From: a virus
Lineage: Duplodnaviria; Caudoviricetes
Reading direction: 5' to 3' (one strand)
Virus record (IMG/VR): IMGVR_UViG_3300005095_000123
Span: 1 to 53,050 of that record
Length of the DNA stretch: 53,050 nt
Position 1 is the first letter of the stretch, and each line of letters opens with the position of its first letter. The translations under genes and the position numbers were made by a program. Below, one piece after another: positions 143 through 51,660 of the stretch. The notes under the pieces are model-generated. The model worked only from the letters and a program-made list of their open reading frames with translations. It was not told the DNA's origin and did not search any database.

Positions 143-559
143 TTAGTCCGCCGGGCGGGCTATGAGAATGTCGTCCGTGCATAGAAGGAGGGCCGGGCCG
201 GTCGTCGCCTCTATGAGGCCGGGCTTGCCGGACACCGTTACCTTTACCGGGGCCGTCGGACGGCAGGTAGTAAGAACCCTGGCCCCGGCCATGACCTTCA
301 CGTCCCGCCCGCCGTTTACTGTGCAAAGCCTAAGATCCCCTACCTGCTTAGAAGAAAAAGGAATACAACACCTCTCTCCGAAAAACGTCTTCTCGCAGGT
401 CTTCTCCGGCGTGGCCGTGAAGTCGAAGAACGTGTTTCGATAGAGCACGGTCCACGGCCCGGCCAGGTCCGTTACGTCAAAGGAGAATACCTTTACCACC
501 AAAGCCATCAACAAAACGAAGAGAATCATGATAACCATGAACGTGACCTTCCTTCTCAT
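143..559 (-). CDS. Hypothetical membrane-anchored or secreted protein immediately downstream of the array
   Basis: 138-aa ORF with AAAGGAGG RBS and an N-terminal basic plus hydrophobic segment (MRRKVTFMVIMILFVLLMALVV). Confidence 0.7.
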   Translation of the reverse strand: MRRKVTFMVIMILFVLLMALVVKVFSFDVTDLAGPWTVLYRNTFFDFTATPEKTCEKTFFGERCCIPFSSKQVGDLRLCTVNGGRDVKVMAGARVLTTCRPTAPVKVTVSGKPGLIEATTGPALLLCTDDILIARPAD

Positions 560-577
560 AAAGCCTCCTTTATTTTT

Positions 578-1648
578 TGGTAACGCTCGTGCATCATGGG
601 TTGCTATCTGCGCTCGGCACGCTTATCTATGTAGGATTTCTTTAGTCTAGCGGCCCGCTTCCTCTTTATGGGCCTCTACTTGTCGCCAGGCCCGCTAATA
701 TATAACGGGTTGCTTCAAAGGTTCGGCCCGCTTGCTATAAATGGGTGCCTGCATCACTTCGGCACGCTTTAAAGCGCGTGGTCTCCTCTTACATAACGGC
801 TCGCTAATGAGAATAGGGTTTCTTTAGGATATTGGCCCGCTAAACCTTTTTGGTCTCCTTACTTAGATTGGGCTCGCTACCTGAAATCTGGAGGCTCAAT
901 CCCACCGGCACGCTGTTTACCCAAGGACTCCTCGCATCGTAGCGGCACGCTGGTCAAGCATAGGGCGTCTCCCGATCTTCGGCTCGCTTGGTCCGTGCGG
1001 ACTGCTAGGACTTAACGGCCCGCTAAAATAACTAGGTCTTCTCAAATTCAGCGGCACGCTAAATAGCATACGGGCTACTTGATTCCCACGGCCCGCTCGG
1101 AGAAGCAGGGTATCTAAATTCTGGCGGCCCGCTAGTCAAAGAGCGGATTGCTTAACTTCCATGGCTCGCTTTTTCCGAAACGGGTTACTTAGTTTCCATG
1201 GCACGCTTCTCTACATAGGGAGTCTAAATCGAAACGGCTCGCTATGCCAATCGGGTCCCTTACATTCCACAGCTCGCTTTGTAAACTCCTGGTAGCTTGA
1301 TTTCCAAGGCCCGCTTCTGTAAACCGGTCATCTAAAGTTTAACGGCTCGCTCCGGCCTTTTAAGGGTAACTTGGCACCGACGGCCCGCATCTGTCCCTTT
1401 GGTTTACTCTACTAAATAAGGCACGCTGGGTCACCGTCGGCCTCCTTTTGCCTTTAGGCACGCTAGATATTGTCGGTTATCTTTGTGGCCCGTCGGCTCG
1501 CTTTTTGTCGTAGGTGGTCTAGCGCACAACGGCCCGCTATGATCTGTCGGTTATCTTCGAGAAGCGTGGCCCGCTTCAACATAGCCGGTCCTCTACCCTC
1601 TCTCGGCTCGCTCTTTTCGGTTGGGCACCTGAATACTAGCGGCGCTTC
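578..1648 (-). ncRNA. TIGR-like tandem interspaced guide RNA array, 29 units of ~36 nt
   Basis: 30 edge repeats (+ strand NGGCHCGCT, first and last degenerate) at 578, 615, 651, 688, 724, 760, 797, 833, 870, 906, 943, 980, 1016, 1052, 1089, 1125, 1162, 1199, 1235, 1270, 1307, 1343, 1381, 1419, 1456, 1494, 1530, 1567, 1604 and 1640. They alternate with 9-nt loop repeats (mostly NGGNNNNCT), separated by unique 8-11 nt (mostly 9 nt) spacers. Strand inferred from the flanking genes. Confidence 0.88.
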
Positions 1649-1908
1649 TTTTTCTTTCGCTTCATAGTCTTGACCTTGGCCTTCGACCAAAGTCTCTTAC
1701 CCTTCTTCGTTCTCTTACTCCTTAACAGGGCAACCGCCTTCGTCCGCCCTCCACGAGGGCCTTCCTTCTCCTTTATTCAAACAAGAACTTTTCGTCCCGG
1801 CTTCTTCGGAACGTCAACGTAGCGGTAGTCCTTACAGCCCCGACGAGTGGCTAGCTTCTCCCTTACATATTTGCCCGTCTTGTAGCGGTAGTATTTTGTT
1901 GTCGCCAT
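1636..1908 (-). CDS. Small very basic protein (90 aa) with in-frame UGA at codon 44; candidate selenoprotein or readthrough
   Basis: Manual translation MATTKYYRYKTGKYVREKLATRRGCKDYRYVDVPKKPGRKVLV-UGA-IKEKEGPRGGRTKAVALLRSKRTKKGKRLWSKAKVKTMKRKKKKRR. The ATG overlaps the upstream TAA (TAATG). Hairpin GCCCTC-GTG-GAGGGC starts 16 nt after the UGA. Confidence 0.6.
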
Positions 1909-2168
1909 TACTTCTTCTTCCTCTTCTTATTTGCCTTTAGAAACTTGGCCGCAAGATTCGCCCTCTTCCTGGTCTTAGGGTTGGGAGATCTCTTACCCTC
2001 TTCGATGCACTTCCACGTCACCTTCTTGTAGCCTTTACGCTGACAGTAGCGCCGGAAAGCTCCCTCGGTCCCCTTGCGCTTGATCTCCTCCTTTACTTCC
2101 TGCATCCACTTCTCTTTACTCTTCCGGCTTGACCTCGATGACCGGCGGGTCTTTTTTCGTTGGGCCAT
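1908..2168 (-). CDS. Small Lys/Arg-rich basic protein (86 aa), possible nucleic-acid-binding or condensing protein
   Basis: ATG at 2168 preceded by AGGAGG; sequence MAQRKKTRRSSRSSRK...KANKKRKKK. Confidence 0.7.
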   Translation of the reverse strand: MAQRKKTRRSSRSSRKSKEKWMQEVKEEIKRKGTEGAFRRYCQRKGYKKVTWKCIEEGKRSPNPKTRKRANLAAKFLKANKKRKKK

Positions 2169-2637
2169 TTCCGTCCTCCTTCGGTCCTTTTCCTCTATCT
2201 TGCCCGTCATCGGCCAAGCCTTCAATCTGAAACACGACCAGGTTTTGCTGGCCGCCTGCCTGCTTCTCACGTAGGAGCCCCTCTATCTTGGCCAGGAGCT
2301 CAAGCGCTTGAATCTTCTCCTGGGGCTTCGTCTTCGGATTCTCTACGATCCGCCGAATCTCCGTTACGAAGTAGTCCTTGCTTACGTTCTGCCGAAGCAC
2401 TATCACTTCCCGGTCGAGGGCGATGGCCTTCTTTACGATCTCCTCTTGGAGCCACTTTAGGGCTGTGGCCCGGCGGACGCCGGCCACCTTGCAAGCCTTG
2501 CTCAGGTCCCCGCCGGTGATCGTAAGGGCTCGGACGAAGGCCCGCTTCTTCTTGCCGAGCCTACGAAAGACCTTCTCCCGCTCTACGAGAGCATCTACTA
2601 TCTCAGTCGGCGCAAGGCTCGTTGGCAATGACGACAT
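2116..2637 (-). CDS. HTH protein, probable terminase small subunit
   Basis: HTH-like GGDLSKACKVAGVRRATALKWL followed by a TerS-like helical region (KIQALELLAKIEG); not adjacent to TerL. Confidence 0.55.
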   Translation of the reverse strand: MSSLPTSLAPTEIVDALVEREKVFRRLGKKKRAFVRALTITGGDLSKACKVAGVRRATALKWLQEEIVKKAIALDREVIVLRQNVSKDYFVTEIRRIVENPKTKPQEKIQALELLAKIEGLLREKQAGGQQNLVVFQIEGLADDGQDRGKGPKEDGNGPTKKDPPVIEVKPEE

Positions 2638-4003
2638 AGCCTTTCTCCTTTATGAGAGCATAGGTCCCCTGATCCATTTGAACGACTGGCGTGATCTTTC
2701 TCATCGCATCCGAGATGGCCTGCGTCAAATTGGCCCTCTTTGTCATTATCGCATCGAGTATTCCGTCGTTGATGGCCTGCTCTATCTCCGCCCCTGTGAG
2801 GGATTCGGAGACGGCCACCAATGCCTCCACGTCTATCTGGTCCCGCTTGGCCTTCGGAAGATTAAGGGCCTTGAGCTTTATCTTGATGATCTCCTCCCTC
2901 TCCGAGGCGAAAGGTGCGTCGAGAAAGAAGATCTTATCAAGACGACCGGCCCGTAAGAGCTCCGTGGGAATACGTGTGAAGTCGTTAGCCGTGAAGATGA
3001 AGAAGACCGGGGCCTGTGTCTCCTGCATGAAGAATAGGAGTTGCGAGAGCATCCGGGCCATGACCCCGGGATTGCCCATCGAATTGTAGCCGGAAAGCTC
3101 CTTCTCCACCTCGTCTATAAGGACTACACACTCGCCGACCCGCTCTATCGTAGAGAGGGCCTGGCGGAGATTGCTCTCTGAGTTCCCTATGTAGGGATTG
3201 AGCAAGGCCCCTATATTCAAGTGGAGAAGGGGCCGCCCTAGTTCATTAGCCACGGCCTTGGCCGAAAGAGTCTTTCCCGTCCCCGGCCATCCAGAGAGGA
3301 GCATCCCTCTCGGAGGCTTTAGTCCTAGCTTCCGCAATCTTCCGAAGTTCTTGAAGTAGAACTTGACCTTCTCGATATACTTCTTGAGTCTAGGAAGCCC
3401 GCCTATGTCGGAGAGCGTCACGTCAGAGCGGATCGTGTTAAGCAGACGGCTGGCATGAATTATCTTCTCCTTGGCCGTGCGCAGGATCTCCGGGTCGTTC
3501 TTGACAAGATAGATCGCCGTGATGCTCTCGACTTCCGTAAGGGAAAGTCCTACCAGCTCTCGGGCTATCTCCTCCGCCGTCTTCTTGTCTAAAGCAAACC
3601 CATCCTTTATATATGCGACGATTTCTTCCTCGGTCGGCGGAGGAAGTTCGTAGGAGACGAAGAGCGTCTCGGCCCCCTTCGGTAGCTCCATACCTATGTT
3701 GACTATATGGGCGTGCTTGCCACGGGCCTTACGGTAGAACTCTATGAGCCCCGGCCCGCCCTTCAAATTGTAGGTGATTACGGCACACGGGGCCTTGCGC
3801 AGGGCCTTGATGATAAAGTCGTCGTCAACGAACAGAGGATCACGACCACCGTCCACGCACTCGAGTCCGCCTTTGGTCATGAAGTAAACAGAGCCCATAG
3901 ACACGGCCTCGAAGGCTTCTCTTACTTTCTGTTCTGCGTGGATCGGATCTGCCGTGAATATCTGGATTAGCGGACAATCAGCCTTGAAGAATTGCTCTAA
4001 CAC
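2603..4003 (-). CDS. AAA+ ATPase (Ycf46-like)
   Basis: DIGGL, Walker A GWPGTGKT, Walker B VVLIDEVEK, second region of homology TAN...PTELLRAGRLD. Confidence 0.9.
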   Translation of the reverse strand: MLEQFFKADCPLIQIFTADPIHAEQKVREAFEAVSMGSVYFMTKGGLECVDGGRDPLFVDDDFIIKALRKAPCAVITYNLKGGPGLIEFYRKARGKHAHIVNIGMELPKGAETLFVSYELPPPTEEEIVAYIKDGFALDKKTAEEIARELVGLSLTEVESITAIYLVKNDPEILRTAKEKIIHASRLLNTIRSDVTLSDIGGLPRLKKYIEKVKFYFKNFGRLRKLGLKPPRGMLLSGWPGTGKTLSAKAVANELGRPLLHLNIGALLNPYIGNSESNLRQALSTIERVGECVVLIDEVEKELSGYNSMGNPGVMARMLSQLLFFMQETQAPVFFIFTANDFTRIPTELLRAGRLDKIFFLDAPFASEREEIIKIKLKALNLPKAKRDQIDVEALVAVSESLTGAEIEQAINDGILDAIMTKRANLTQAISDAMRKITPVVQMDQGTYALIKEKGYVVIANEPCAD

Positions 4004-4571
4004 CTGCGCCCTCCTTTTCTTCCTCCCTTATCCCGGCCAGATAGGACGACACGGCCCGGATGATCGCCTCCTTCCTCGACAAGTCGAGCTCCTCGGCGAG
4101 CGAGTCTATCAGCTCGGCCTCGTCCTGCGTAAGAGTGAGCGACATTCGGACGAAACCGTCTTTCTTCTCTCCGTAGTTTACTTGGAGCCAATTCTTGAAC
4201 TCCGCATAAGACATCTCTCTTGCGAGATGCAACATCTTATCCAGCTCCTCTCTTACGAGATGGATCTTCCCAAGGACGACCGCCGCCTCCTTGAACTTCG
4301 TCCAGTTTATTTCTTCAAGGTCTTTCGGCGTCAGTCCGTAATCACGCATTATCTCTCCGATCTTTACCATATACATGAAATACGAATACGACACCGGTAG
4401 CTGAAGCTCTACATATTCCCTGATCGTGTCGTAGCCCATCGCCCTCCATCCACCAAGCGAATAGAAAGCATAGGCGATCTGTGCTTTTTGATACCACGCC
4501 TTTGTTTCTATACGCATTACTTCTTTGAGCTTATCGCTAAGTGTTATTGCATTGTTCGTCTTGTCCGCCAT
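3978..4571 (-). CDS. DNA-binding protein with C-terminal ribbon-helix-helix (CopG-like) domain
   Basis: C-terminal VRMSLTLTQDEAELIDSLAEELDLSRKEAIIRAV fits the RHH pattern; N-terminal helical/HTH-like region. Confidence 0.6.
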   Translation of the reverse strand: MADKTNNAITLSDKLKEVMRIETKAWYQKAQIAYAFYSLGGWRAMGYDTIREYVELQLPVSYSYFMYMVKIGEIMRDYGLTPKDLEEINWTKFKEAAVVLGKIHLVREELDKMLHLAREMSYAEFKNWLQVNYGEKKDGFVRMSLTLTQDEAELIDSLAEELDLSRKEAIIRAVSSYLAGIREEEKEGAGVRAILQG

Positions 4572-6587: not shown

Positions 6588-6615
6588 ATTATACAGGCGA
6601 AAAATACCTTGTCAA
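6588..6615 (-). promoter_or_regulatory. Consensus sigma70 promoter
   Basis: TTGACA-16 bp-TATAAT on the minus strand. Confidence 0.75.
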
Positions 6616-6763
6616 GTCCGAAATTCGGCGATTATAGCTGATTATTTTACTTTCGCTTAGCCGAATTTCTTTTTTCTAACTTTCTTGTAGAAAATTAACT
6701 ATTGTAGGATAAAGGCAAATTCACCGTATTTTTGTTTTCGATTGGGTCGTTCCAAACGTTTGG

Positions 6764-6803: not shown

Positions 6804-6929
6804 GAGGAAGGAGGCGAGGAGGTTTGGTATGTCGAGGAAGTGTCTATGCAAAAGTTAGGCCCGCCGGGGAGGCGGGCCTAGTTGGGTAGGGGAGGGATGG
6901 AGGACACGGGGCTATGTTCCTAGGCTAGC

Positions 6930-6963
6930 AAATAAAAAAGGCCCCCGCCACAATGACGGGGGC
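6930..6963 (-). terminator. Intrinsic terminator downstream of the HU gene
   Basis: Minus strand GCCCCCGTCA-TTG-TGGCGGGGGC followed by CTTTTTTATTT. Confidence 0.7.
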
Positions 6964-7446: not shown

Positions 7447-7722
7447 ATGGAGCCTGCATTTTTGTTTGTATTTACGTGTTTTGGGGCGTTTGCGGGGCAA
7501 GTTAATTTGGATCACACAAATAATGATGAGCTAGTGTTGGATAATCCGGCCATAATAATGTTACGTGTGGGTCGGTCTGAAATTTTGCCTATAGGAAAGA
7601 CCCGTCTCCATATTTCAAGGAGACAGATAATCGGACAATGCAATATGCCCGAGGACGTGGAAAAGCAGTATCGCATGGAGCTGTTGGGGCTTAAAGGAGG
7701 AGCTAATGGTCATAGGAAGTAA
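7447..7722 (+). CDS. Hypothetical protein
   Basis: AGGAGGAG RBS; first gene of the plus-strand operon; TTGCAT-16-TAAACT upstream (7389-7416). Confidence 0.65.
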   Translation: MEPAFLFVFTCFGAFAGQVNLDHTNNDELVLDNPAIIMLRVGRSEILPIGKTRLHISRRQIIGQCNMPEDVEKQYRMELLGLKGGANGHRK

Positions 7723-8230
7723 GCGCATCGAGCACCTTCTAGATATTGGCGTCTTGGTCATCAATCCCCGACCAAGGCCGGAGGCCATTCAGCCGGCCTC
7801 AGTTGACCTGCGACTCGGAGACCAGTTCCGGGTTATCTCCAAGAACGGGTCTATTATCGATCCATCTAAAGGAGCGGCATACGAAGAGGTCTCCGGGGTA
7901 TCTGAGTTCGTCCTCTATCCCCAAGAATTTTGTTTGGCCCACACCATAGAGGAGATAAAACTCCCTGTGGAGTTGATGGCCTCTCTCGAGGGGCGATCCT
8001 CTATCGGCAGGATGGGTCTATTCATTCACAACGCCGGCCACGTTGATCCCGGGTTTCACGGGCAGTTGACCCTGGAACTGTTCAACGCCGCCCCGGTTCC
8101 TATTCGCCTCTATCCCGGGATGCGTATTTGCCAGATAGTTTTTCAAGAGGTGAAGGACGCCCACTTCTATCGAGGAAAGTATCTCGGACAAAGAGGGGCG
8201 ACGCCGAGTAGGATATACAAGGACTTTTAA
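7706..8230 (+). CDS. dcd: dCTP deaminase
   Basis: IQPASVDLRL, EGRSSIGRMGL, AGHVDPGFHGQLTLE, GMRICQ, Y-GKY-GQ motifs. Confidence 0.95.
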   Translation: MVIGSKRIEHLLDIGVLVINPRPRPEAIQPASVDLRLGDQFRVISKNGSIIDPSKGAAYEEVSGVSEFVLYPQEFCLAHTIEEIKLPVELMASLEGRSSIGRMGLFIHNAGHVDPGFHGQLTLELFNAAPVPIRLYPGMRICQIVFQEVKDAHFYRGKYLGQRGATPSRIYKDF

Positions 8231-8231
8231 G

Positions 8232-8576
8232 ATGCCAAAGAGCCCTAAAGAGACCGAGTATCAAAAGCTCATAAAGACATACATGGAGACCAATGGGTTC
8301 CTTGTCCTCCGCATCCCGCCCTCTATCTACACGAACATGAAGGGACTTCCAGATCTCGTATGCATCAAGGAGGGGTTCCACGTATGGATAGAGGTCAAGA
8401 AGCCAAAGGGCAAGCTCTCGAAGAAACAGGAAGAAGTAATCTCGAAGATGCGTGAGGCAGGAGCCCTTGTCTTGATCTCCTACGGATTCAACGAGGAGGC
8501 TCTGGCAGAGGTAGTTGCCAAGGTAGATAAGATGATAAAACTTCTCCAGAAAAAACTTGAGAGAGGAAAGAAATAA
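8232..8576 (+). CDS. VRR-NUC / Holliday-junction-resolvase-like PD-(D/E)xK nuclease
   Basis: GLPDL...WIEVKKPKGKLSKKQ. Confidence 0.85.
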   Translation: MPKSPKETEYQKLIKTYMETNGFLVLRIPPSIYTNMKGLPDLVCIKEGFHVWIEVKKPKGKLSKKQEEVISKMREAGALVLISYGFNEEALAEVVAKVDKMIKLLQKKLERGKK

Positions 8577-8916
8577 GATGGTCGATACGGTCTTTGAACG
8601 GGCGACACGAAGATATTTCGAGGCGTGCGAAGTTGTTTTCTGGCCAGGTGTGGATGTAAACGTGGCTCTCCACCAAGATAAGGCCAGCGCTTATGCCGAA
8701 GTCGCCTTTATATCCGTGTTGCGTCGGCATAGGAAATTGCTTTATTACCAGGGTCTCCTTTACCGGGGTCATCCCGATGATCTCCGCCGACCGGACGACG
8801 GCCAAGCGAATGATGTCGGCAGAGGAGAGGGCGTCCTTGTCGGCCCCGGTGATGTTGGCAAGGAAGAGCCCGCCGTCCATAGTAAAATGATTAAGGAGGG
8901 TTAGGGGTATGTCCAC
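8488..8916 (-). CDS. speD: S-adenosylmethionine decarboxylase-family pyruvoyl proenzyme
   Basis: GISAGLILVESHVYIHTWPE...LEISSC with the E-S-H autocleavage site; lies antisense to the surrounding operon. Confidence 0.85.
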   Translation of the reverse strand: MDIPLTLLNHFTMDGGLFLANITGADKDALSSADIIRLAVVRSAEIIGMTPVKETLVIKQFPMPTQHGYKGDFGISAGLILVESHVYIHTWPENNFARLEISSCRPFKDRIDHLISFLSQVFSGEVLSSYLPWQLPLPEPPR

Positions 8917-9367
8917 TTTTTTTCAGAACCTACGGCACTTTTCGCCTCATGAAAGATGGGGCGACCCGAACAAGATGGATCATTTGCTCCTACTCGTCCT
9001 AGATGAATTGAGGGAGCAGTATGGATCTCCTTTTATAATCCACGAAGGTTATGCCACGTCGGGCCACACGCCCAGGTCTCTCCACTACGTAGGGAAGGCC
9101 GTGGACTTCCATCCCAATGATGATCGGTCCCCGGAGGAGCGCCTCTATCAAATGGCCGAGGCCCTATGGCGGGCGAACCAACGGTTCATTGAGGCCGGGA
9201 TAGACCTGGGGGTTATTTGCCGGTTGGGTTGGTATCCAGAGTGGGTCAATCCAGGGTTTCATTTGGACGTGGCCGGACGACCCCTCTATTGGGTCCGCCG
9301 TGGGGATCATTATTACTACTACGGTATGCTGGAGAAGTTGATCTATGCCGAAGCTGAGCGTGTGTGA
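8909..9367 (+). CDS. Endolysin, peptidase M15 family
   Basis: SLHYVGKAVDF and FHLDV zinc-ligand motifs; AAGGAGG RBS. Confidence 0.85.
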   Translation: MSTFFQNLRHFSPHERWGDPNKMDHLLLLVLDELREQYGSPFIIHEGYATSGHTPRSLHYVGKAVDFHPNDDRSPEERLYQMAEALWRANQRFIEAGIDLGVICRLGWYPEWVNPGFHLDVAGRPLYWVRRGDHYYYYGMLEKLIYAEAERV

Positions 9368-9698
9368 TATTTGGGATTTTCCCGCCGAGTTCGAGGGGGC
9401 GGTGATCGTCCACGAGAAGCAACGGGCGATCGCCTCTATTCCGGCCAAGTTTTATCGCAAGGGGCCTACGCTCCGCATTGTCCTCGAGAAGGACTGGGAA
9501 GGAAAATTCGGGAAGGAGAAGCTCTATCTCGGTATTAAATACCATGACGGTTTCCGCCCGTTTTTTATCCATCTCCTCGGGCGACCAGGAGACCGTCTGT
9601 TGTTGAAAAAGGATTTTGCGATAGTCACGGCCTCGGACGAGGCCGGAGTAAACCTATTAGATATAAAGGAGGGCACGGGAGATGAACGGAAGACTTAA
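9345..9698 (+). CDS. Hypothetical protein
   Basis: 117-aa ORF overlapping both neighbours. Confidence 0.6.
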   Translation: MPKLSVCDIWDFPAEFEGAVIVHEKQRAIASIPAKFYRKGPTLRIVLEKDWEGKFGKEKLYLGIKYHDGFRPFFIHLLGRPGDRLLLKKDFAIVTASDEAGVNLLDIKEGTGDERKT

Positions 9699-10341
9699 AA
9701 TCTTGACCAGTCTGCACTTTCAGGTCCAAAAGAACCGCATTCGCTTCAACAACGCATCAAAGGCGTTGGAGCGGGAAGGGCTCGGAGACGAGCGTGTGAG
9801 GGAGATTTATGAGGCGATCATTGACGACCTTCTACGGGCCGAGCGTGAAATTCAAGAAGAGATGATGATAGAGCTCAATGAAGAGGAGATCTATACCGAG
9901 TGGCTCAAGAAGGTTAAGGGTGTCGGACCCGTGATGGCGGCTTGGCTGGTAGGCTGGCTCGACCCGGAGAAGGCCGACACCGTGTCGGCCTTTTGGAAGT
10001 ATTGTGGCCTGCACGTGGAGGACGGACAGGCCCCCCGCCCCCGCAAGGGACAAAAGATAAACTGGAACCCGAAGCTCAAGGCCAAGTTGATGGGAGTGTT
10101 GGCGCCGTCATTCCTGCGGTCGAAATCTCCCTACGCCGACTTCTACTATCAATACAAGGAGAGGAAATTAAACCTGGGATGGAAGGAGGGTCATGCGCAT
10201 TTTGCGGCCCTTCGTTACATGGTAAAACAGTTCCTCAAGGATTTGTGGGTTACGTGGCGGGAGATGCTCGGTCTTCCCGTGCGCCCGCCCTACCACGTGG
10301 AGAAGCTCGGCTTGCACGATCACGCCCCGAAAGTGGCATGA
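9682..10341 (+). CDS. Nop/IS110-like RNA-binding-domain protein lacking a nuclease domain (TasA-like)
   Basis: Coiled coil followed by WLKKVKGVGPVMAAWLV...SAFWKYCGL...NWNPKLK...HAHFAALRYMVKQFL, resembling the IS110/IS116 C-terminal and Nop fold; no RuvC/DEDD or HNH domain; AAGGAGG RBS. Confidence 0.8.
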   Translation: MNGRLKILTSLHFQVQKNRIRFNNASKALEREGLGDERVREIYEAIIDDLLRAEREIQEEMMIELNEEEIYTEWLKKVKGVGPVMAAWLVGWLDPEKADTVSAFWKYCGLHVEDGQAPRPRKGQKINWNPKLKAKLMGVLAPSFLRSKSPYADFYYQYKERKLNLGWKEGHAHFAALRYMVKQFLKDLWVTWREMLGLPVRPPYHVEKLGLHDHAPKVA

Positions 10342-10382: not shown

Positions 10383-10634
10383 ATGGCTGATGTATTGGAA
10401 CAGAAAAAGGAAGAAACTATTGTAAAGAAGGAAACCAAACCCGGATGGAAGACAACTGAATTTTGGACCAGCCTCGGGGCTTCCGGCGTCGGGATTTTGA
10501 CGACCCTGGGTGTGTTGACTCCCGAGCAGGCCAACACCGTTGTTCAAGCCATCGGGCAGATCGTCGGAGGGATTTTGGCCGTGGCCCCGATCGTCGGCTA
10601 CGCCATTTCCCGGGGACTGGCCAAGAAGGTGTGA
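10383..10634 (+). CDS. Holin-like membrane protein
   Basis: KPGWKTTEFW followed by two hydrophobic helices and a basic C-terminus; near the endolysin. Confidence 0.7.
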   Translation: MADVLEQKKEETIVKKETKPGWKTTEFWTSLGASGVGILTTLGVLTPEQANTVVQAIGQIVGGILAVAPIVGYAISRGLAKKV

Positions 10635-10670
10635 TGGATTTCCAAACGTTTGGAAAAACCGGAGTGAAAA

Positions 10671-10973
10671 ATGCTTAGATTGTCGGCCCGCTGTATCGAA
10701 GTCCTTACGAAGTTCCGCAAGGCACCTGATTATTTCTACGTCCTGGTTCTCCTCTACAAGAGCATGGACAAGGACGGATCGGTGCCATGCACGGCCAGGG
10801 ACGGCCAGCGGGCCTACGACGAGATAGTCAAGCAGTTAATAACCTTGGGGATTTTGATAAAGCATCGGGGCAGGTGTTACTTCAATCCCCAGTATGTAAG
10901 TGTGGCGAGGAACGGAGCCGATGGCACGTCAACGGGAGCTAGTAGAGCTATCTATCGCATACCCACCGTTTGA
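10671..10973 (+). CDS. Hypothetical protein, possibly winged-helix
   Basis: IVKQLITLGILIKHRGRCYFNP resembles a wHTH wing. Confidence 0.5.
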   Translation: MLRLSARCIEVLTKFRKAPDYFYVLVLLYKSMDKDGSVPCTARDGQRAYDEIVKQLITLGILIKHRGRCYFNPQYVSVARNGADGTSTGASRAIYRIPTV

Positions 10974-11235
10974 GACGTTTCTGCCGGCCCCCCGTATAAT
11001 CCTGGCGGCCCCGGTCCACGTCTCCAACGTTTCGGATCTACTCCGTTATTTTGAGAAGCTGGGGATAACGGCCCGCTACGACACGCAACGCCGGGCCATC
11101 GTCTTTTGGGAGAACGGCCAGGAGAAGACCGCCTTCGTCGGCAAGCACTATATCGTCCTCATAGACGGCCAGGTTGACGTAATGCGGAAGGAGACTTTCA
11201 ACCGGAAGTTTATTCCGGTAAAGTGCCTGGTATGA
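10921..11235 (+). CDS. Hypothetical protein
   Basis: ATG 10921 after GGAG; ATGA overlap with TerL. Confidence 0.55.
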   Translation: MARQRELVELSIAYPPFETFLPAPRIILAAPVHVSNVSDLLRYFEKLGITARYDTQRRAIVFWENGQEKTAFVGKHYIVLIDGQVDVMRKETFNRKFIPVKCLV

Positions 11236-13130
11236 GAATCCTTCGTTATTCTTTCCGTTCAGTTCCGACAATCAAGCGTTTTGTTCTTTCTCGCAAAAAG
11301 TATAAGTATCTACAAGGACCGGTAGGATGCCTCCCCGGCGATGCCGAATTTTTAACCCCTACTGGATGGAAGCGTATAGATTCTTATGAGGACGGAGACT
11401 TTGTAGCTCAAGTGGATTGGGAAAATAACAAAGTTTCTTTTGTAAAACCGACCGCCTATATTTCTGCGCCGGCAGATAAATGGATCGTTTTTGATCGGGG
11501 AGATTTTGTTATGAAGGTCTCCCCGGAACATAGAGTTGCTTTTCTTGACGAGAACGAAAAGCTATTCGTTATTCCCGCCCGTGATTTTTTGCTGTTCGAC
11601 GGCCTGTTGTCTCTTATTTTTCTAATTAACAGGGAGGAATACGGGATAGAGTTTTTTGTTCCGAAGTTCGTTCTCGGTAGCGTGTATAAAGTAAAAATAT
11701 TTGAAGAGGAACCTAAAGACCGGGAGAAAAAATATTGCTTTGAAGTTCCTACTTCTTTATTCCTCGTGCGCCAGAACGGAAAGGTTTTTGTAACAGGAAA
11801 TTCAGGGAAGTCTAGTGGCTGTGTTTTCCATCTTTTCTACTATGCTATGCAACAACCGCCTAACGTTAATGGAGTTAGACGCACACGTTACGTCATCGTT
11901 CGTAATACCTATCGCCAGTTGCAAGACACGACAAAGGTGACCATAGACGAGTGGCTCGACCCGTCTATCGCCAAGTGGAAAGAAATGAAGTCCCTTTATG
12001 AGATCAAGTTCGCCCTCAAAGACGGTACAACGGTCGAGTCCACCTGGCTCCTACGGGCCTTGGACAATCCCGATCACGTTCGGAACCTTTTGTCCTTGGA
12101 AGTGACGGGGGCCTGGTTCAACGAGGCCCGGGAGATACACCAAGACATCTTCGAGGTTATGCGGACGAGGATAGGGCGCTTCCCGCCGGCCAAGGACGGA
12201 GGCCCCGACTATCCTTTTATTATTCTTGACTCCAACCCGCCGGACACGGACCATTGGCTCTACAAGCTCTTCGAGGAAGCGCCGAAGAAGGACCCGAAGG
12301 TGGCCGAGCTGTTCGAGGCGTTCTATCAACCGTCCGGTCTATCACCGGAAGCCGAGAACATAGAGAACCTTCCTCCCCGATACTACGAGGAGTTGTGCAT
12401 CGGGCAGGACGAAGACTGGATTCGTGTTTACGTCCACGGTGAATACGGCTTCCTCAAAGAGGGGAAGCCCGTATTCTCTGCCTATCGGGACAAGCTCCAC
12501 CTGGCGGACGAGGAGCTCATGCCCATTAGGGGATACCCTCTTATAATCGGAATGGACTTCGGCCTTACGCCCGCCACCGTGATAACACAGAAAATAAAGA
12601 ACCGCCTATACGTCCTCGACGAGGAATATACGCTCGAGCCGACGGATCTCGAGACCTTCGTCAACGAGCAATTGATTCCTCGCCTAACGGAGCGGAAGTA
12701 TTTGGGGATGGACACGATAATCATAGGCGACCCGGCGGGGACTACCCGTTCCCCTACGGACGGACGGACGTGCGTGGCCGTGCTAAGGCAGTATTTCCCT
12801 CGGGTTTATGTCGCCTGGACGAACGCCATCAACGAGCGGATAAGGGCCGTTAACGAATATCTCACTCGGATGGACGGAGACGAGCCGTGCTTCAAATTGT
12901 CTCCTACGTGCAAGTGGCTCCGACAGGCGTTGAATGGTAAATACTATTTTCAAAGGAAGCGGGGATCGAAGGGCGTTTACAGCGACGTTCCGGTGAAAAA
13001 CGAATATTCGCACGTCGCCGACGCCCTACAGTATGCGGCAATGGGTTATCGGCCCAGCTACAATATGGTAAAGAGACCGGAAACAGCTCCTGGCGGAGGT
13101 AAGCGAGTTGGCTTCGACGCATTCGTATGA
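11232..13130 (+). CDS. terL: Terminase large subunit, intein-containing
   Basis: Walker A GPVG/SGKS split by an intein; AWFNEARE; DSNPP; nuclease motifs IIGMDFG and HVADALQY. Confidence 0.93.
   Translation: MRILRYSFRSVPTIKRFVLSRKKYKYLQGPVGCLPGDAEFLTPTGWKRIDSYEDGDFVAQVDWENNKVSFVKPTAYISAPADKWIVFDRGDFVMKVSPEHRVAFLDENEKLFVIPARDFLLFDGLLSLIFLINREEYGIEFFVPKFVLGSVYKVKIFEEEPKDREKKYCFEVPTSLFLVRQNGKVFVTGNSGKSSGCVFHLFYYAMQQPPNVNGVRRTRYVIVRNTYRQLQDTTKVTIDEWLDPSIAKWKEMKSLYEIKFALKDGTTVESTWLLRALDNPDHVRNLLSLEVTGAWFNEAREIHQDIFEVMRTRIGRFPPAKDGGPDYPFIILDSNPPDTDHWLYKLFEEAPKKDPKVAELFEAFYQPSGLSPEAENIENLPPRYYEELCIGQDEDWIRVYVHGEYGFLKEGKPVFSAYRDKLHLADEELMPIRGYPLIIGMDFGLTPATVITQKIKNRLYVLDEEYTLEPTDLETFVNEQLIPRLTERKYLGMDTIIIGDPAGTTRSPTDGRTCVAVLRQYFPRVYVAWTNAINERIRAVNEYLTRMDGDEPCFKLSPTCKWLRQALNGKYYFQRKRGSKGVYSDVPVKNEYSHVADALQYAAMGYRPSYNMVKRPETAPGGGKRVGFDAFV
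11328..11801 (+). mobile_element. Mini-intein (158 aa) in the TerL Walker A loop
   Basis: Starts CLPGDAEFLTPTGW; block B SPEH; ends FLVRQNGKVFVTGN before a Ser nucleophile; no LAGLIDADG domain; AT-rich. Confidence 0.92.
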
Positions 13131-22200: not shown

Positions 22201-23180
22201 GGAGAGGGCGTTATCTCGAACAGCCGATAGCCGCCTTCAAACCCATGCGCTTTCTGGGAGAAGGGAATTATCCCTATCCCTATTTTCAGTTGGACCTTGA
22301 TCTCGACAAGGACGGTGTTCTTCGGGCGAGGCCCCGCCTCAAAAAAGTAATTTCCGCCGAGAAGCCCCATTCTCTTTTTTCCTATCGAGGATTCCTCTTC
22401 TACGTGTCCCAGGGAAAGCTCTATCTTTACGGTGGAGTTGACTCGGCGGAGATAGCGGACATCGGCCCGGACGAGACCCTTTATTATGTCGGCATCGCCC
22501 ACGTGGTTTATATGTCGAATCGCAATTGGCAGGGCATTTTCGATTTCCAAACGTTTGGAACGAGGCCGTTCCCGACAAAGGAAAAAATCGTCCGGCAATT
22601 CTTACCGGACATAGGGGTTCCCCTTGAGGAGGCCGACTTCGAGACGCTTCCGCCCTTGGACTTCCTTACGTTCCACCAGGGGCGACTCGTGGGAGCCAGG
22701 GAAACGACAGTAATTTTTTCGGAGACGGGATTCTACGAGATGACCCGGCCTTTCTATTATATAGAAATAGGAGAGCCGGTAACGATGGTGGCGAGCGCCC
22801 TGGACACCCTATACGTGGGGACGAAAACCAAAACGGTGGTGGTGACCGGGCCGTTGACCAATCCGTCCTACCGGGAAGTCCCGGTAGGGGCCGTGAAGGG
22901 GACGCTCGCTTACAAGGCGGTAAAGGGAGTTAAAATTCCGTTCTGGGCCACGCTCACGTCTATCGTGGCGGGCCTGCCTGGAGGAGAGATAAAGCCTATG
23001 AGCAAGGAATTTTTTGACTTGAGGTTCGACACGGAGGGCAAGGGAGCCGCCGTATCGTCCGAGCACGACGACCGTGTGATAATGTCCGTGCCGCAGGCCC
23101 CGGACCGGGCGAAGGTAACGGACGATTTTATCTGCGAAGTGGTAAGAAAGGGCTCCGTAAGGAAGGCCCTAAAACAGTAA
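22197..23180 (+). CDS. Tail stabilisation or nozzle-like protein
   Basis: Follows the adaptor; DLDKDGVLRARP and beta-propeller-like HQGRLVGA...FSE. Confidence 0.55.
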   Translation: MRRGRYLEQPIAAFKPMRFLGEGNYPYPYFQLDLDLDKDGVLRARPRLKKVISAEKPHSLFSYRGFLFYVSQGKLYLYGGVDSAEIADIGPDETLYYVGIAHVVYMSNRNWQGIFDFQTFGTRPFPTKEKIVRQFLPDIGVPLEEADFETLPPLDFLTFHQGRLVGARETTVIFSETGFYEMTRPFYYIEIGEPVTMVASALDTLYVGTKTKTVVVTGPLTNPSYREVPVGAVKGTLAYKAVKGVKIPFWATLTSIVAGLPGGEIKPMSKEFFDLRFDTEGKGAAVSSEHDDRVIMSVPQAPDRAKVTDDFICEVVRKGSVRKALKQ

Positions 23181-47911: not shown

Positions 47912-48180
47912 AGGTCCTCCATGAGCTCCTCGACGCCGGTCTCCTTACGGGCCAGCTCGGCCCGGATCTTTTCTTCTTCGACGTCGAGGATCTTCTTCAC
48001 AAATCTCTTATGCTTCTCCACGTCCTTCGTCGTCTTTATAGGGGCCGAGACGCCGGCCTGGATGGACCGGCTCTCGTAGTTCCCCAGGTTTATCGTCCTC
48101 TTCTCCGAATAAGTGAAGACCGTCGGATAGACGATCTTCATGATTGGTTCCTTACTCATCATCCTCCTCCAGGGCCTCAA
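47908..48180 (-). CDS. Hypothetical protein
   Basis: RTINLGNYES motif; precise start uncertain. Confidence 0.6.
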   Translation of the reverse strand: MRPWRRMMSKEPIMKIVYPTVFTYSEKRTINLGNYESRSIQAGVSAPIKTTKDVEKHKRFVKKILDVEEEKIRAELARKETGVEELMEDL

Positions 48181-49168
48181 TGTCGGCCATGAGGGCGTCG
48201 AGGCCCTCGATGTCCTCTCCTTCCTCAGCCAGCAGGGCGTCGGCCTCTTCCTCTACCACCTCTTCCTTTTTCTTCTTCGGACGACCCCGCTTCTTAGGTT
48301 TCTCCTCTACGGCCTCCTCTTCCTCCTTCTTTTTCTTGGGCCGACCCCGCTTTTTAGGCTTTTCCTCCTCTACTTGAGGCTCCTCCTCTTCCTTTTTCTT
48401 CTTCGGCGGGCGTCCCCGCTTCCTCGGCTTTGGAGCCTCCTCCTCGGGCTCCTCTTCCTCTTCATCCTCTTCCTCATCGAGAGGCTCCGGCTCGCCCTCT
48501 ATAAGAGCCTCGTCCTCCCCGGGCTCCTCGTCGTCCTCTTCGAGGACCGCATCGAGGTCCTCTTCTTCGAGGATGGAGTCGCCCTCGACAGGGACGACGA
48601 AGCCCAAGGCCTCGAGCTCCTCGTCCGTAGGAGGAGCGAGGACTTTCTCATACTCAAAGGGGACGGCGAACTCCCCTTTGAGTCGGACACGCCCGAGGAC
48701 TTCGACAACAATTCCCGTATTGGGATCTTTGTTCGTGTAGCGCTTGAGCCTGATTTTCAGGCCAACCAGGCTCTTATGCTTCTCTTTGAGTTCTATAAGT
48801 TGTTTGGCCAAGGTGCTCTTGGCAGGAAGGAGCACCTTTCTGGCCTTCAAGACCCGCCCGTCTTGCGTGGTAAACGGACGGAGATCAATTGCCGTGTAGA
48901 AGGTAACGCCGGCGGGACGACGACCCTTCACCTGACAAATCCGGCAGGGTCGCAATCCCTCGGAACAGGTGAGATTTACCCACCTGTTTCCGATTTGGAC
49001 GGTGTGGACTTCACACCAGAACGGGTCGTCATCGACTAGGACGACAACCGCCTCCTCCCCCGGCTTCAACCAAAACCAGGGGACCGATTTCTCTTTCAAA
49101 AGTTTGCTTACCTTCTCCTGGCGCTCCAGCGCCGTGATCGCTTCCTGTCCTCGCTTATACCAACTCAT
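48152..49168 (-). CDS. Probable single-stranded DNA-binding protein with an acidic, AT-hook-containing tail
   Basis: Position between primase and helicase; Zn-like H/C..CxxC; very acidic C-terminus with three KRGRP motifs. Confidence 0.65.
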   Translation of the reverse strand: MSWYKRGQEAITALERQEKVSKLLKEKSVPWFWLKPGEEAVVVLVDDDPFWCEVHTVQIGNRWVNLTCSEGLRPCRICQVKGRRPAGVTFYTAIDLRPFTTQDGRVLKARKVLLPAKSTLAKQLIELKEKHKSLVGLKIRLKRYTNKDPNTGIVVEVLGRVRLKGEFAVPFEYEKVLAPPTDEELEALGFVVPVEGDSILEEEDLDAVLEEDDEEPGEDEALIEGEPEPLDEEEDEEEEEPEEEAPKPRKRGRPPKKKKEEEEPQVEEEKPKKRGRPKKKKEEEEAVEEKPKKRGRPKKKKEEVVEEEADALLAEEGEDIEGLDALMADIEALEEDDE

Positions 49169-50031
49169 ACCTTCCTCCTTAAATTTGATTTTTTTAACAC
49201 CCGGCGGATCAAATTTCTTTCAACGATTTCCGCCGGGTCTTTCGCACCATAATAATTAACCACTTCGTATATGTCAAGAAAACCCTTGAACTTTCTGTAA
49301 CACAGCTCCTTGAAAAAATGCCCTTCCTTATCGTCGTCGAGAAAAAGGACGACCGCCTTATAAAGGGCACGGACGGTGCGGAGCTGGCCGTCCGACGGGT
49401 TTCCCAAAAAACCGAGTGTGTGGACGTAACGGGAAAGGAGGATCGTGTCCCGGTCGCCCTCTACGAGAAAGACGTATTTTTTCCGAGGCAGGTGGATGCC
49501 GTAAAGCTCTGTTTTCTTCCAGTCTGACGGGTCGAAGAGGAAAAATTTTTTATCGCTGAGATAACGGAATTTTATTGCCCGAAGATTTTTGTCTCTGTCG
49601 TAAAGAGGATAGACGAGGGCCTTATTCGTCGGATCGAACTTTATCTGCCACTTCTCGATGTCCTCTTTCGTAAGGCCCATTATCTCCGGGGCGTCCGGCA
49701 GGTCTCGAAGGAAGTCGTCGTGGATCGGTTGGATCTCCTTTTTGATCTTTTTTCTCCCTCTATTTTTGAGGAATTTTTTGATGTCCCGTTCGAGGGCGTA
49801 GTCATAGCGGCGGGTGTAGCGGGCGAGCTCCCGGGGAAGTCTGGATAGGGGGCCGTGAATGCGGCACCCGAAGCAGTTGAATCCGCCGTCTTCGGAGATA
49901 CCGAAGCTGGGGTGCTTGTCGCCGTTGGTGTGCCTCCAAGGAGCGAACGGGCAGGAGAACATGACCCATCCCTGTCCTACCGGACGGGCGTTTGGGCTAA
50001 AGTGCTTCCGTGCCAATTCCAGCAGAGTCAT
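49165..50031 (-). CDS. DNA primase (Zn finger plus TOPRIM)
   Basis: CPF...H...PSF...CFGC; LVEGDRD; LFLDDDKEG. Confidence 0.9.
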   Translation of the reverse strand: MTLLELARKHFSPNARPVGQGWVMFSCPFAPWRHTNGDKHPSFGISEDGGFNCFGCRIHGPLSRLPRELARYTRRYDYALERDIKKFLKNRGRKKIKKEIQPIHDDFLRDLPDAPEIMGLTKEDIEKWQIKFDPTNKALVYPLYDRDKNLRAIKFRYLSDKKFFLFDPSDWKKTELYGIHLPRKKYVFLVEGDRDTILLSRYVHTLGFLGNPSDGQLRTVRALYKAVVLFLDDDKEGHFFKELCYRKFKGFLDIYEVVNYYGAKDPAEIVERNLIRRVLKKSNLRRKV

Positions 50032-51196
50032 CCTCTCCGAACTCCCCTTTCAGCCAATTCCACTTGAGCGGAACGGCCACGTCGGCTACGGATTTTCTGG
50101 ACGCAACGATTTGCATTTTTCGTTGCTCCTCCGGGCCGTTCTGCTCCTTTGTGATGGCCACGAGAAACGAGACGATTTGCCCTATCGCATCGGATAGGGC
50201 CACGTGAGCGGTGTCCAGGTTCTTTGCCCGGGCCGCCTCCCTATTGAGTTGGTAGGAGCAAATGATCGGGAGCCGTGCCCGCATGGCGACCCGCTTGATC
50301 TCTTCGATGATGTAGCGGGCCTTTTCCCAATCGGTCCGGAGCCATCGTGGCCCCGGGATCAAGTAGGCCGCATCAATGAATATCAATTCCGGCGAGAAAG
50401 CTTCTATAAGGGGATAGAGGTCGGTCACGGCCTTGATGGCCGAGCTTTCTACGAAGAGAAAGTTTTTCTTTATCTTCTCCATCTCCTCTTCGATTTTCTT
50501 TTCGACGAACGATGAGATGCGTCCTTGGTAGAAGATGGTCGGGCTGGTTTTGAGGACTATCCCCCACAGGCGGGCGTAGATCTCTTCCTTGGCGAGCTCC
50601 ATCGAGACGAACATGGTCCGATGATTTCGGACCACGTGGTTGAAGGACCAAACGAGATACTGCGATTTGCCCGACTTGGGCCTGCCTGTAAAGGCCCACA
50701 CGTCGCCCCGGGAATAGCCTCCCGTTATCGTGTCTAATAGGGGCCATCCCGTCTCTATCCCCACGAGGCCCTTGAGCGAGGAAACACGAGCGTCGTCTAT
50801 GACCTGCTTCACGTCGGAAAGAAGGTCGTCCTCGGAGATGACGACATGCTCGTGGGTCATCTTGTCGAGGGCCTCCGACATGAGGACCCGGAGCGCCCGG
50901 GATAGACCCTGATGCGGATTCTCGGCCCCCCGCAGGTCGTCCGCCACGTCGAGCAAGACCTGTTGCAGGTGCCTCTCGTAGAGGGTGTCGAGGTAATACT
51001 CAATCGGATGGTCCTCGAAATCCGCCGGCGGGTCCTTCGGCGGGGGCGGGAGAACGCCGTATTTCTTCAAATATTTCTTTATGGCCCGTAGGAATCTAAG
51101 CTCTTCCTCTACGAGCCACTTCTTTTTTACCTTTTGTAGAGCGTCCGCCCGCTTTTCTTTGAGTATCTTGTAAAGTAAATGCTCCCCTATGAGCAT
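49997..51196 (-). CDS. DnaB-like replicative helicase
   Basis: GIETGW, GRPKSGKS, VSMEL, IFIDAAYL, QLNRE, SDAIGQ. Confidence 0.92.
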   Translation of the reverse strand: MLIGEHLLYKILKEKRADALQKVKKKWLVEEELRFLRAIKKYLKKYGVLPPPPKDPPADFEDHPIEYYLDTLYERHLQQVLLDVADDLRGAENPHQGLSRALRVLMSEALDKMTHEHVVISEDDLLSDVKQVIDDARVSSLKGLVGIETGWPLLDTITGGYSRGDVWAFTGRPKSGKSQYLVWSFNHVVRNHRTMFVSMELAKEEIYARLWGIVLKTSPTIFYQGRISSFVEKKIEEEMEKIKKNFLFVESSAIKAVTDLYPLIEAFSPELIFIDAAYLIPGPRWLRTDWEKARYIIEEIKRVAMRARLPIICSYQLNREAARAKNLDTAHVALSDAIGQIVSFLVAITKEQNGPEEQRKMQIVASRKSVADVAVPLKWNWLKGEFGEDDSAGIGTEAL

Positions 51197-51660
51197 TTTA
51201 GCCTCCGTGCCATCTCCATCGCCTCCGTCACTTCTTCTTCATTGTAGGAGAGGCCCGCCCGGTCGAGGGCCTCTCGCAGGTCTTTTTCGCTAACGGACGA
51301 TAAGGCCAGGGATAGGAGAAGCGGGTCGAAGCGCTTTTGAGGTCTGGGTTTCTCTTTCAAGTCGGCACGCTTCGTTACCCCGGGTGTCTTTGGTGTTGTG
51401 GGCAGACGGGAGAGTAAGAGGAGAGCCACTTTTGGGGAGAGCCAGGGGGCCTCGATGTCCTCCAGGCCCTCGTCGTAGAGGGCCTTTACACACCGCAGGG
51501 CCTCCTCCGGGTCTAGGCCCCGCTTCCGCGCGGCCTCTACGAACGACCGCACGTCCTCCGGCTCTATTCGCTTCAAGAGCGCCTTCGGCAGTCCCGCTAC
51601 CCTCCAAAAGCCGATCCGCGTCATGACCCTATATCGTAGCAGGAGATCGCCGACCTGCAA
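51187..51660 (-). CDS. Hypothetical protein
   Basis: First ORF of the replication operon; start uncertain. Confidence 0.55.
   Translation of the reverse strand: MQVGDLLLRYRVMTRIGFWRVAGLPKALLKRIEPEDVRSFVEAARKRGLDPEEALRCVKALYDEGLEDIEAPWLSPKVALLLLSRLPTTPKTPGVTKRADLKEKPRPQKRFDPLLLSLALSSVSEKDLREALDRAGLSYNEEEVTEAMEMARRLKCS

Follow-up and report, generated by a model that had tools for sequence, protein, structure and literature searches.

A compact nuclease-free Tas protein and its probable partner, a distal dual-repeat TIGR array on the opposite strand of a Caudoviricetes virus record

The virus record IMGVR_UViG_3300005095_000123 of IMG/VR (Duplodnaviria; Caudoviricetes), here called the window, was analysed over its whole length of 53,050 bases; it is linear, and CheckV puts its completeness at about 87%. 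On its plus strand, at 9682..10341, lies a gene whose product is almost certainly TasA, a nuclease-free effector of the RNA-guided TIGR-Tas systems, and on its minus strand, at 584..1612, lies a dual-repeat TIGR array of 28 units. The best explanation of the locus overall, to which we give a probability of about 75%, is that a compact dual-repeat TasA takes its guides from the distal array, stays bound to its target and blocks it.

Identity of the Tas protein

The open reading frame (ORF) at 9682..10341 (+) starts with ATG, and its translation of 219 amino acids contains the stretch GVGPVMAAWL...FWKYCGL. This was as described in the first-pass annotation, made from the sequence alone, which had seen in it the signature of a Nop-like domain or of the C-terminal part of IS110. 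The product matched the NCBIfam model NF052498 (TIGR_Tas_endo, an equivalog named 'TIGR-Tas system RNA-guided endonuclease') with 160.2 bits against a cut-off of 100 and an E-value of 6.6e-47, covering positions 1-215 of the 215 in the profile. In the six-frame search of the window the same model gave 159.1 bits at 9682-10341. The family phrog_4285, labelled 'transposase', was matched at an E-value of 1e-40. When the PDB sequences were searched with phmmer, TaTasR (9mty) was the best match with an E-value of 9.6e-27, query residues 48-213 being aligned to chain residues 148-314, and TasH was found with an E-value of 2.2e-17.

An AlphaFold2 model of the product, built on a 33-row alignment, had a pLDDT of 90.1 and a pTM of 0.83. 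The predicted fold is all-helical and begins with an N-terminal hairpin formed by the helices 3-31 and 37-65; low confidence was confined to residues 118-122 and the C-terminal tail. In the Foldseek comparison, ranks 1 to 10 were TasR or TasH chains (E-values 8e-10 to 3.5e-8, TMq 0.70-0.79). The IS110-family recombinases ISCro4 and IS621 came next with E-values of about 1e-3 and a TMq of 0.64, and the best Nop5 match, 1nt2_B, reached an E-value of 0.59 and a TMq of 0.38 and is hence not a close one. The comparison with Nop5, IS110 and the Tas proteins, which the first-pass annotation had suggested, led to a Nop-domain Tas fold with TasR and TasH on top. The 219 residues are fully taken up by the helical hairpin and the Nop domain, and no RuvC or HNH part is present; therefore, we assign the protein to TasA, the commonest effector of the TIGR systems (Faure et al. 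2025, PMC12045711). The nuclease-less TasA proposed from the sequence was thus borne out by the family model, the sequence and fold matches and the domain content.

The structure of TaTasR (9mty) contains TIGR-TasR with its tigRNA and the target DNA; it shares with the window protein the coiled coil, the Nop domain and a dual-repeat 36-nucleotide (nt) guide (TMq 0.76), but it has an active N-terminal RuvC domain (D11), which the window TasA does not have. SpTasH of the Salicola phage CGphi29 (PDB 9w03, 9w04, 21kl and others; PMC13421893) is phage-borne like the window TasA and belongs to the TasH matches given above, whereas it is a DNA-cutting protein with an HNH nuclease at its N-terminus. 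In FpTIGR-TasA of Flavonifractor plautii (Faure et al. 2025), as in the window system, the effector is a solo Nop-domain protein that lacks a nuclease.

In a large protein search restricted to 120-384 amino acids, the other 46 homologues were all longer than the window protein, with 253-384 amino acids. Therefore, the upstream ORF at 9345..9698 was examined as a detached nuclease domain. This ORF had no match in PDB, Pfam, PHROG or PADLOC and no homologue in 82 related loci (described below). In addition, the N-termini of the homologues align with that of the query, with which they share the N-terminal helix, and what makes them longer is inserted sequence within the coiled coil and the Nop domain. 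A split or frameshifted TasR with its RuvC domain in the ORF 9345..9698 was therefore ruled out, and the shared start together with the internal insertions marks the protein as a compact solo-Nop TasA.

The formation of a homodimer was predicted: the median score over three runs was 0.73, compared to 0.11 for the best control. Of 30 proteins whose solved structures are pairs, 20 reach the mark used for this score, compared to 1 of 23 whose structures are single chains. Between the runs, at least 100% of the contacts agreed, the partner pLDDT was at least 83, and the predicted interface involves residues 3-60. Passing this mark may reflect a likeness to the solved dimers of TasR and TasH and is not a proof of dimerisation.

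The residues that might process the guide RNA were located with the PDB alignment register of TasH and the SpTasH numbering of PMC13421893. There, Y289 and H296 are the processing residues of SpTasH, and R278, R286, E292 and K293 are among the others needed for processing. Their counterparts in the window TasA are Y204 for Y289, R193 for R278, R201 for R286, E207 for E292 and K208 for K293, so that the catalytic tyrosine and the RNA-end-binding residues are conserved. Y204 is invariant in all 33 rows of the alignment, at least 90% of which also have H214. Both H212 and H214 come after the EKLG motif, like H296 in SpTasH, and are in the flexible C-terminal tail. According to Xu et al. (2026, bioRxiv 10.64898/2026.09.09.750476), the precursor is cut by a Tyr/His dyad in a C-terminal loop, which is retained in dual-repeat Tas proteins and absent from stem-loop types. 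From the alignment, Y204 with H212 or H214 are candidate tigRNA-processing residues of the window TasA.

The distal array and its probable pairing with tasA

The array at 584..1612 (-) was characterised by motif counts, unit tables and column composition. Read on the minus strand, a unit consists of the edge repeat AGCGNGCC, a spacer A of 10-12 nt, a loop repeat and a spacer B of 9-12 nt; 26 units have AG-N4-CC as their loop repeat, and the other 2 have AG-N3-CC. The 28 units descend from 1612 to 587 with spacings of 36 nt (11 times), 37 nt (12 times), 38 nt (3 times) and 35 nt (once), and a truncated edge repeat, AGCG, ends the array at 587-584. As read from the sequence, a degenerate further unit may be present at 1648-1613. 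Exact copies of GGCNCGCT were counted 26 times in 616-1612 versus 10 times elsewhere in the window, with a mean of 9.6 for the whole window after shuffling. The grammar of the full unit had 12 exact matches in the window, 11 of them in the array, where 0.01 were expected.

Columns E2-E4 and E6-E7 of the edge repeat and L1-L2 and L7 of the loop repeat are invariant in all 28 units. AG occupies E1-E2 (27 and 28 of 28) and L1-L2 (28 of 28), and CC occupies E7-E8 (28 and 27 of 28) and L7-L8 (28 and 26 of 28). The four middle positions of the loop are A-rich, with 49 A among 112 letters. The grammar published by Faure et al. (2025) has two alternating repeats of 8-12 nt, spacers of about 9 nt, a 36-nt unit and an A-rich loop, and box D-like and box C-like nucleotides covary between its edge and loop repeats. 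On its sequence, the window array fits this dual-repeat grammar. It resembles the FpTIGR-TasA array in the two alternating short repeats, the paired spacers of about 9 nt, the 36-nt unit and the shared box D-/C-like frame, and is unlike arrays of that type in having units of 36-37 nt with intervals of 10-12 nt. Its box motifs are AG...CC versus UG...CCA in the TaTasR arrays.

The array is located about 600 nt from the left end of the record among leftward genes: an ATPase gene at 2603-4003, a possible regulator at 3978-4571, small basic ORFs at 1650-1900 and an ORF at 143..559 directly after the array. Past the terminal AGCG (587-584), the ribosome-binding site and the ATG of the ORF 143..559 follow, and the prediction gave no minus-strand terminator at this place. 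No family was matched by 143..559 or by 1908..2270, the ORFs that flank the array.

Between the first edge repeat (1612) and the start of tasA (9682) there is a gap of 8,070 nt. No array adjoins tasA; a single AGCGGGCC was found at 10807, without a loop motif or the rest of a unit. The first-pass annotation was therefore right in placing the array on the opposite strand with no repeats beside the gene. Six-frame searches with the TIGR-Tas and Transposase_20 models found a Tas locus in the record at 9682-10341 alone, and the array at 584-1612 (-) is the only TIGR array of the record. Because array and tas gene are each the only one and the edge repeat is common to the arrays beside the closest relatives, the distal array is probably the partner of the window TasA, as had been presumed from the start.

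The layout was compared with that of related loci. A profile search of IMG/VR yielded 220 viral stretches with relatives among 303 candidates, of which the best 80 were kept; together with three loci of the first search, one of them in both sets, 82 loci were compared. Their flanks are up to 10 kb and often shorter, and near-duplicates are among them, e.g. L013/14/15/17 and L018/19/21. Of the 82 loci, 75 had a detected array and 66 had one of the AGCGNGCC type, so the co-occurrence of gene and array that was to be checked in relatives was found. The distance from tas to the nearest array was up to 1 kb in 70 of these 75 loci, 1-5 kb in 3 and more than 5 kb in 2. In 62 of the 66 loci the AGCGNGCC-type array was on the tas strand only, and in 4 there were extra three-unit runs on the opposite strand; a AGCGNGCC-type array solely on the opposite strand occurred in none of the 82 loci. 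The four best viral relatives (L004-L007) have AGCGNGCC-type arrays at most 480 nt from tas. In the dual-repeat TIGR-TasA systems described by Faure et al. (2025), such as FpTIGR-TasA, the array is directly upstream or downstream, whereas in the window it is 8 kb away on the opposite strand. This split layout is exceptional for the TasA clade of the window.

The nearest precedent among the 82 relatives is L054 (9719-17232), where a tas gene of 293 codons is followed about 5.7 kb downstream by a 17-unit array of the AGCGNNCC type, with ORFs of the same strand between them. In the other locus with a distance of more than 5 kb, L041, the nearest array has a dubious 34-nt repeat. Three loci that were first scored as array-less had 2-8 units adjoining tas on re-inspection. 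No array was detected in seven loci, L024 among them. The whole record behind L024 (G002) has no AGCGNGCC cluster but two short runs with a 36-nt period: four units at G002:C1:5524-5670 (L084), about 1.1 kb from tas, and five units at G002:C1:18035-18140, about 13.6 kb from tas. Each of them may be a small array with a different repeat.

None of the neighbours of the window tasA recurs next to tas in the related loci, and 14 of the 16 that were tested gave 0 of 82. A homologue of the ATPase was found in 5 of the 82 loci and one of the portal-like ORF in 1, several kb from tas in these cases. Since no neighbour recurs, the tas-array module moves between unrelated phage backbones. Relatives of the protein are present in the cultured phages Salicola phage CGphi29, Ralstonia phage phiRSL1 and Microcystis phage Mvi-JY20 and in many mycobacteriophages, all with less than 40% identity. 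For the backbone, the GenBank phages gave two short matches only, covering 1-2% of 8 kb, and a search of IMG/VR with the portal-like protein gave no backbone relative.

The only exact full-unit match outside the array is a solitary tigRNA-like unit at 51332..51371 (-), consisting of an edge repeat, 10 nt, a loop repeat, 10 nt and AGCG. It lies inside an ORF of 157 amino acids at 51187..51660 (-), upstream of a DnaB-like helicase gene at 49997..51196 (DnaB_C match). A weaker half-unit with one mismatch was seen at 51499-51524 (-).

Proposed function and rival explanations

In the mechanism that we propose, the array would be transcribed leftward with the minus-strand genes, and TasA would be translated from the rightward block of the endolysin-like gene, the 117-residue ORF, tasA, the holin and the terminase genes. 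Since tasA and the array are in opposite gene blocks, their transcripts would be different and the guides loaded in trans. A TasA dimer, joined through the hairpin, would bind the precursor in trans, and Y204 with its histidine partner would cut in the middle of the edge repeat to yield tigRNAs of 36-37 nt. The two spacers of each guide, about 9-10 nt long, would pair with the opposite strands of a DNA site. The nuclease-free TasA would then stay bound and block the transcription or replication of its target; a rival mobile element or a host gene is the most likely target. This follows the published model for the family, in which a Tas dimer binds the precursor, cuts the edge repeat and lets spacers A and B pair with opposite strands; TasA itself binds 36-nt RNAs (Faure et al. 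2025). The working model for the last step is MbTasA and the nuclease-dead TasR, DNA-binding proteins without nuclease activity which repress transcription in a guide-dependent and reversible way (Xu et al. 2026). By analogy with them, we put the odds of steric repression, as against some other DNA-binding role, at about even. The idea of an RNA-guided repressor, raised in the first-pass annotation, is therefore reasonable but not new.

Several points weigh against this explanation. Transcription, processing and guide loading are all inferred, and at the borders of the array no convincing promoter or minus-strand terminator was predicted. The repression in print was obtained with MbTasA, which is of the stem-loop type, whereas the window TasA is of the dual-repeat type; the examined passages of Xu et al. 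(2026) contained no repression by a dual-repeat TasA. Among the candidate processing residues, the equivalent of H296 in SpTasH may be either H212 or H214, and at the position of H268 the window TasA has Q183. In the relatives, the array is nearly always adjacent and on the same strand, so that the separation in the window could mark a rearranged and possibly decaying system. A second tas gene is possible beyond the left end of the linear and incomplete record, more than 600 nt past the array.

The targets of the guides were searched with the spacer pairs in a geometry derived from the 8-nt 3' overhangs of TasR, in which the reverse complement of spacer B comes after spacer A, and in an alternative geometry, each with gaps of 0-2 nt and two spacer registers; mispaired A/B spacers served as controls. 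The results weigh on the same side. In the window, the 26 units with the AG-N4-CC loop gave no excess of matches over the mispaired controls, and the same was true for the two AG-N3-CC units and the solitary unit. Likewise, no excess was obtained in the 82 related viral loci (1.12 Mb). From the lack of an excess in the window we concluded that the guides do not regulate the phage's own genome. The solitary unit had no local match with up to five mismatches within 1.5 kb.

A 16-bp palindrome is present at 10640-10655, between the stop codon of the putative holin gene and the next ORF. Unit 1315 matched near copies of the palindrome at 10627-10645 and 22531-22550, with four mismatches each; as just two of the copies were matched and the shuffled control gave about 3.7 matches per unit at the same threshold, these were judged to be due to chance. 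The tigRNA spacer pairs had no match beyond chance to the palindrome sites.

Three other explanations were weighed against a TasA that is guided by the distal array and blocks its target. The gene and the array might not be partners at all: the array would then belong to another Tas gene in the missing 13% or so of the record, or be a relic, and TasA would be an orphan that draws its guides from elsewhere or has none. The end of the linear record is only about 600 nt from the array, and since the relatives have their array within 1 kb of tas on the same strand (70 of 75), a partner would be expected close by; Xu et al. (2026) also mention a compact Tas branch in dense viral genomes without a detectable array. 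We nevertheless regard this as unlikely, because there is no Tas-like ORF beside the array, whose flanking ORFs are without family matches, because the six-frame searches find 9682-10341 only, and because the edge repeat is that of the closest relatives of TasA. The 28 highly regular units argue against decay, and L054 provides a separation of 5.7 kb. It is very improbable that the ORF is a decayed IS110-family transposase, stripped of its DEDD/RuvC domain and unconnected with guide arrays. Such a remnant is what the borderline match to Pfam Transposase_20 (20.6 bits with hmmscan and 22.7 bits in six frames, cut-off 21.3) and the name 'transposase' for its relatives in PHROG and in some database records would suggest. 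The IS110 equivalog NF033542, however, gave 21.4 bits against a cut-off of 140, compared to 160.2 against 100 for the TIGR-Tas model, and the E-values of the TasR and TasH folds were about six orders of magnitude better than those of IS621 and ISCro4 (PDB 8wt6, 8wt9, 9t56), which have a related Nop-like RNA-binding domain. IS110 recombinases use a single bridge RNA and a DEDD/RuvC domain, whereas the window TasA would take its guides from a tandem array and has no N-terminal DEDD/RuvC domain. Its length is full relative to the family in the 220 viral stretches, 75 of the 82 loci have an array, and the processing tyrosine of the dual-repeat type is conserved.

The remaining explanation accepts that TasA binds DNA with its tigRNA but gives the complex a role other than steric repression, either the recruitment of a nuclease or the bending of DNA for integration, partition or packaging. 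Faure et al. (2025) discuss DNA bending, ParB-like partners and an aid to integrases for TasA, the gene is in a lysis and packaging block near the terminase, and a VRR-NUC gene is 1.1 kb upstream. Nuclease recruitment had been offered in the first-pass annotation, which named the VRR-NUC, Cas4-like and endonuclease genes of the window. For each of the three, the count of related tas loci with a homologue was 0 of 82, and by appearance they are ordinary phage genes of recombination and replication; this suggestion found no support. In the same loci, none of the genes around the window tasA is again found beside tas, and no ParB-like gene was among the scanned neighbours. Guide-dependent repression is the sole activity that has been demonstrated for a nuclease-free Tas protein in the sources cited here, and a role of this other kind is rather unlikely.

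Genomic setting and significance of the locus

The tasA gene is in a tightly packed rightward block, where it overlaps or abuts the neighbouring ORFs and no space is left for an adjoining array. The block includes a dCTP deaminase gene at 7706-8230 (+), a Hjc/VRR-NUC nuclease gene at 8232-8576 (+) and an endolysin-like peptidase gene at 8909..9367 (+), which matched phrog_894 at an E-value of 1.3e-10 and Peptidase_M15_3 with 23.1 bits (cut-off 23.2). The 3' end of the latter overlaps the start of the unassigned ORF 9345..9698 (+; 117 amino acids), which is in another frame and overlaps the start of tasA by 17 nt. A putative holin gene of 83 codons at 10383..10634 (+) begins 42 nt past the stop codon of tasA; it was assigned by weak matches to phrog_565 (E-value 0.0028) and Phage_holin_10 (0.0067), and two hydrophobic segments were seen in its translation by eye. 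The gene had been placed between an endolysin and a holin. The endolysin-like gene is indeed upstream, but the 117-residue ORF intervenes and the holin remains putative. A PADLOC scan gave no match.

Two ORFs of unassigned function (+) separate the holin gene from the large terminase gene at 11223-13130 (+; 635 amino acids), which was identified by terminase profiles. These profiles match mainly from residue 194 on; phrog_979 spans residues 30-350, and residues 21-108 match a PhoH-like PHROG. The N-terminal stretch opens with a Cys-Leu-Pro-Gly-Asp-type motif, which we take to be intein-like, and may be an intein or a fused domain. Elsewhere in the window, a sigma-70 consensus promoter with a perfect 12/12 match points leftward at 6588-6615 (-), and two strong terminator-like hairpins are just upstream of it at 6941-6963 and 6856-6880 (-). 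The ORF of 338 amino acids at 48152..49168 (-) contains at 48253-48556 (-) imperfect tandem repeats of 60-69 nt and repeats of 15 nt, which are CT-rich on the plus strand.

The family, the guide grammar, the processing dyad and the repressor function are already in print, and a curated NCBI model exists (PMC12045711; PMC13421893; bioRxiv 10.64898/2026.09.09.750476). The locus adds no new mechanism; its unusual feature is the layout. Faure et al. (2025) searched 5 kb on each side of tas. Xu et al. (2026) used flanks of up to 10 kb, with a median of 5,374 bp recovered, and found arrays at 6,685 of 20,096 loci and called none at 13,411. The prediction that a neighbourhood search would miss the window locus holds for the 5-kb flanks and not necessarily for those of up to 10 kb. 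Remote or opposite-strand arrays are not described in the examined passages of the two papers, their supplements and TIGRSafari aside. The layout might be functional, with a complex that forms only when both blocks are transcribed and silencing of rival elements or host genes that is gated to one stage of the infection, and remote arrays, or solo units within coding genes like that at 51332-51371, might supply guides to Tas proteins of dense viral genomes that seem array-less. We regard this as a tentative suggestion with a low probability.

Since the description of the TIGR-Tas systems in 2025, their biology and natural targets have remained open questions. The window, a nearly complete phage record of 53 kb, gives a clear case, with a very compact TasA and a large array of 28 guides that is remote and on the other strand. 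The small size of this TasA could interest tool developers. For surveys, the locus means that the number of arrays is underestimated when the search is limited to a few kb on either side of tas. Xu et al. (2026) do not settle whether compact Tas proteins draw on another guide source when their dense viral genomes show no array, and the window locus offers one answer, for a TasA. If the two parts of the locus belong together, as is probable, a dual-repeat TasA must be able to load its guides in trans from a separate transcript.

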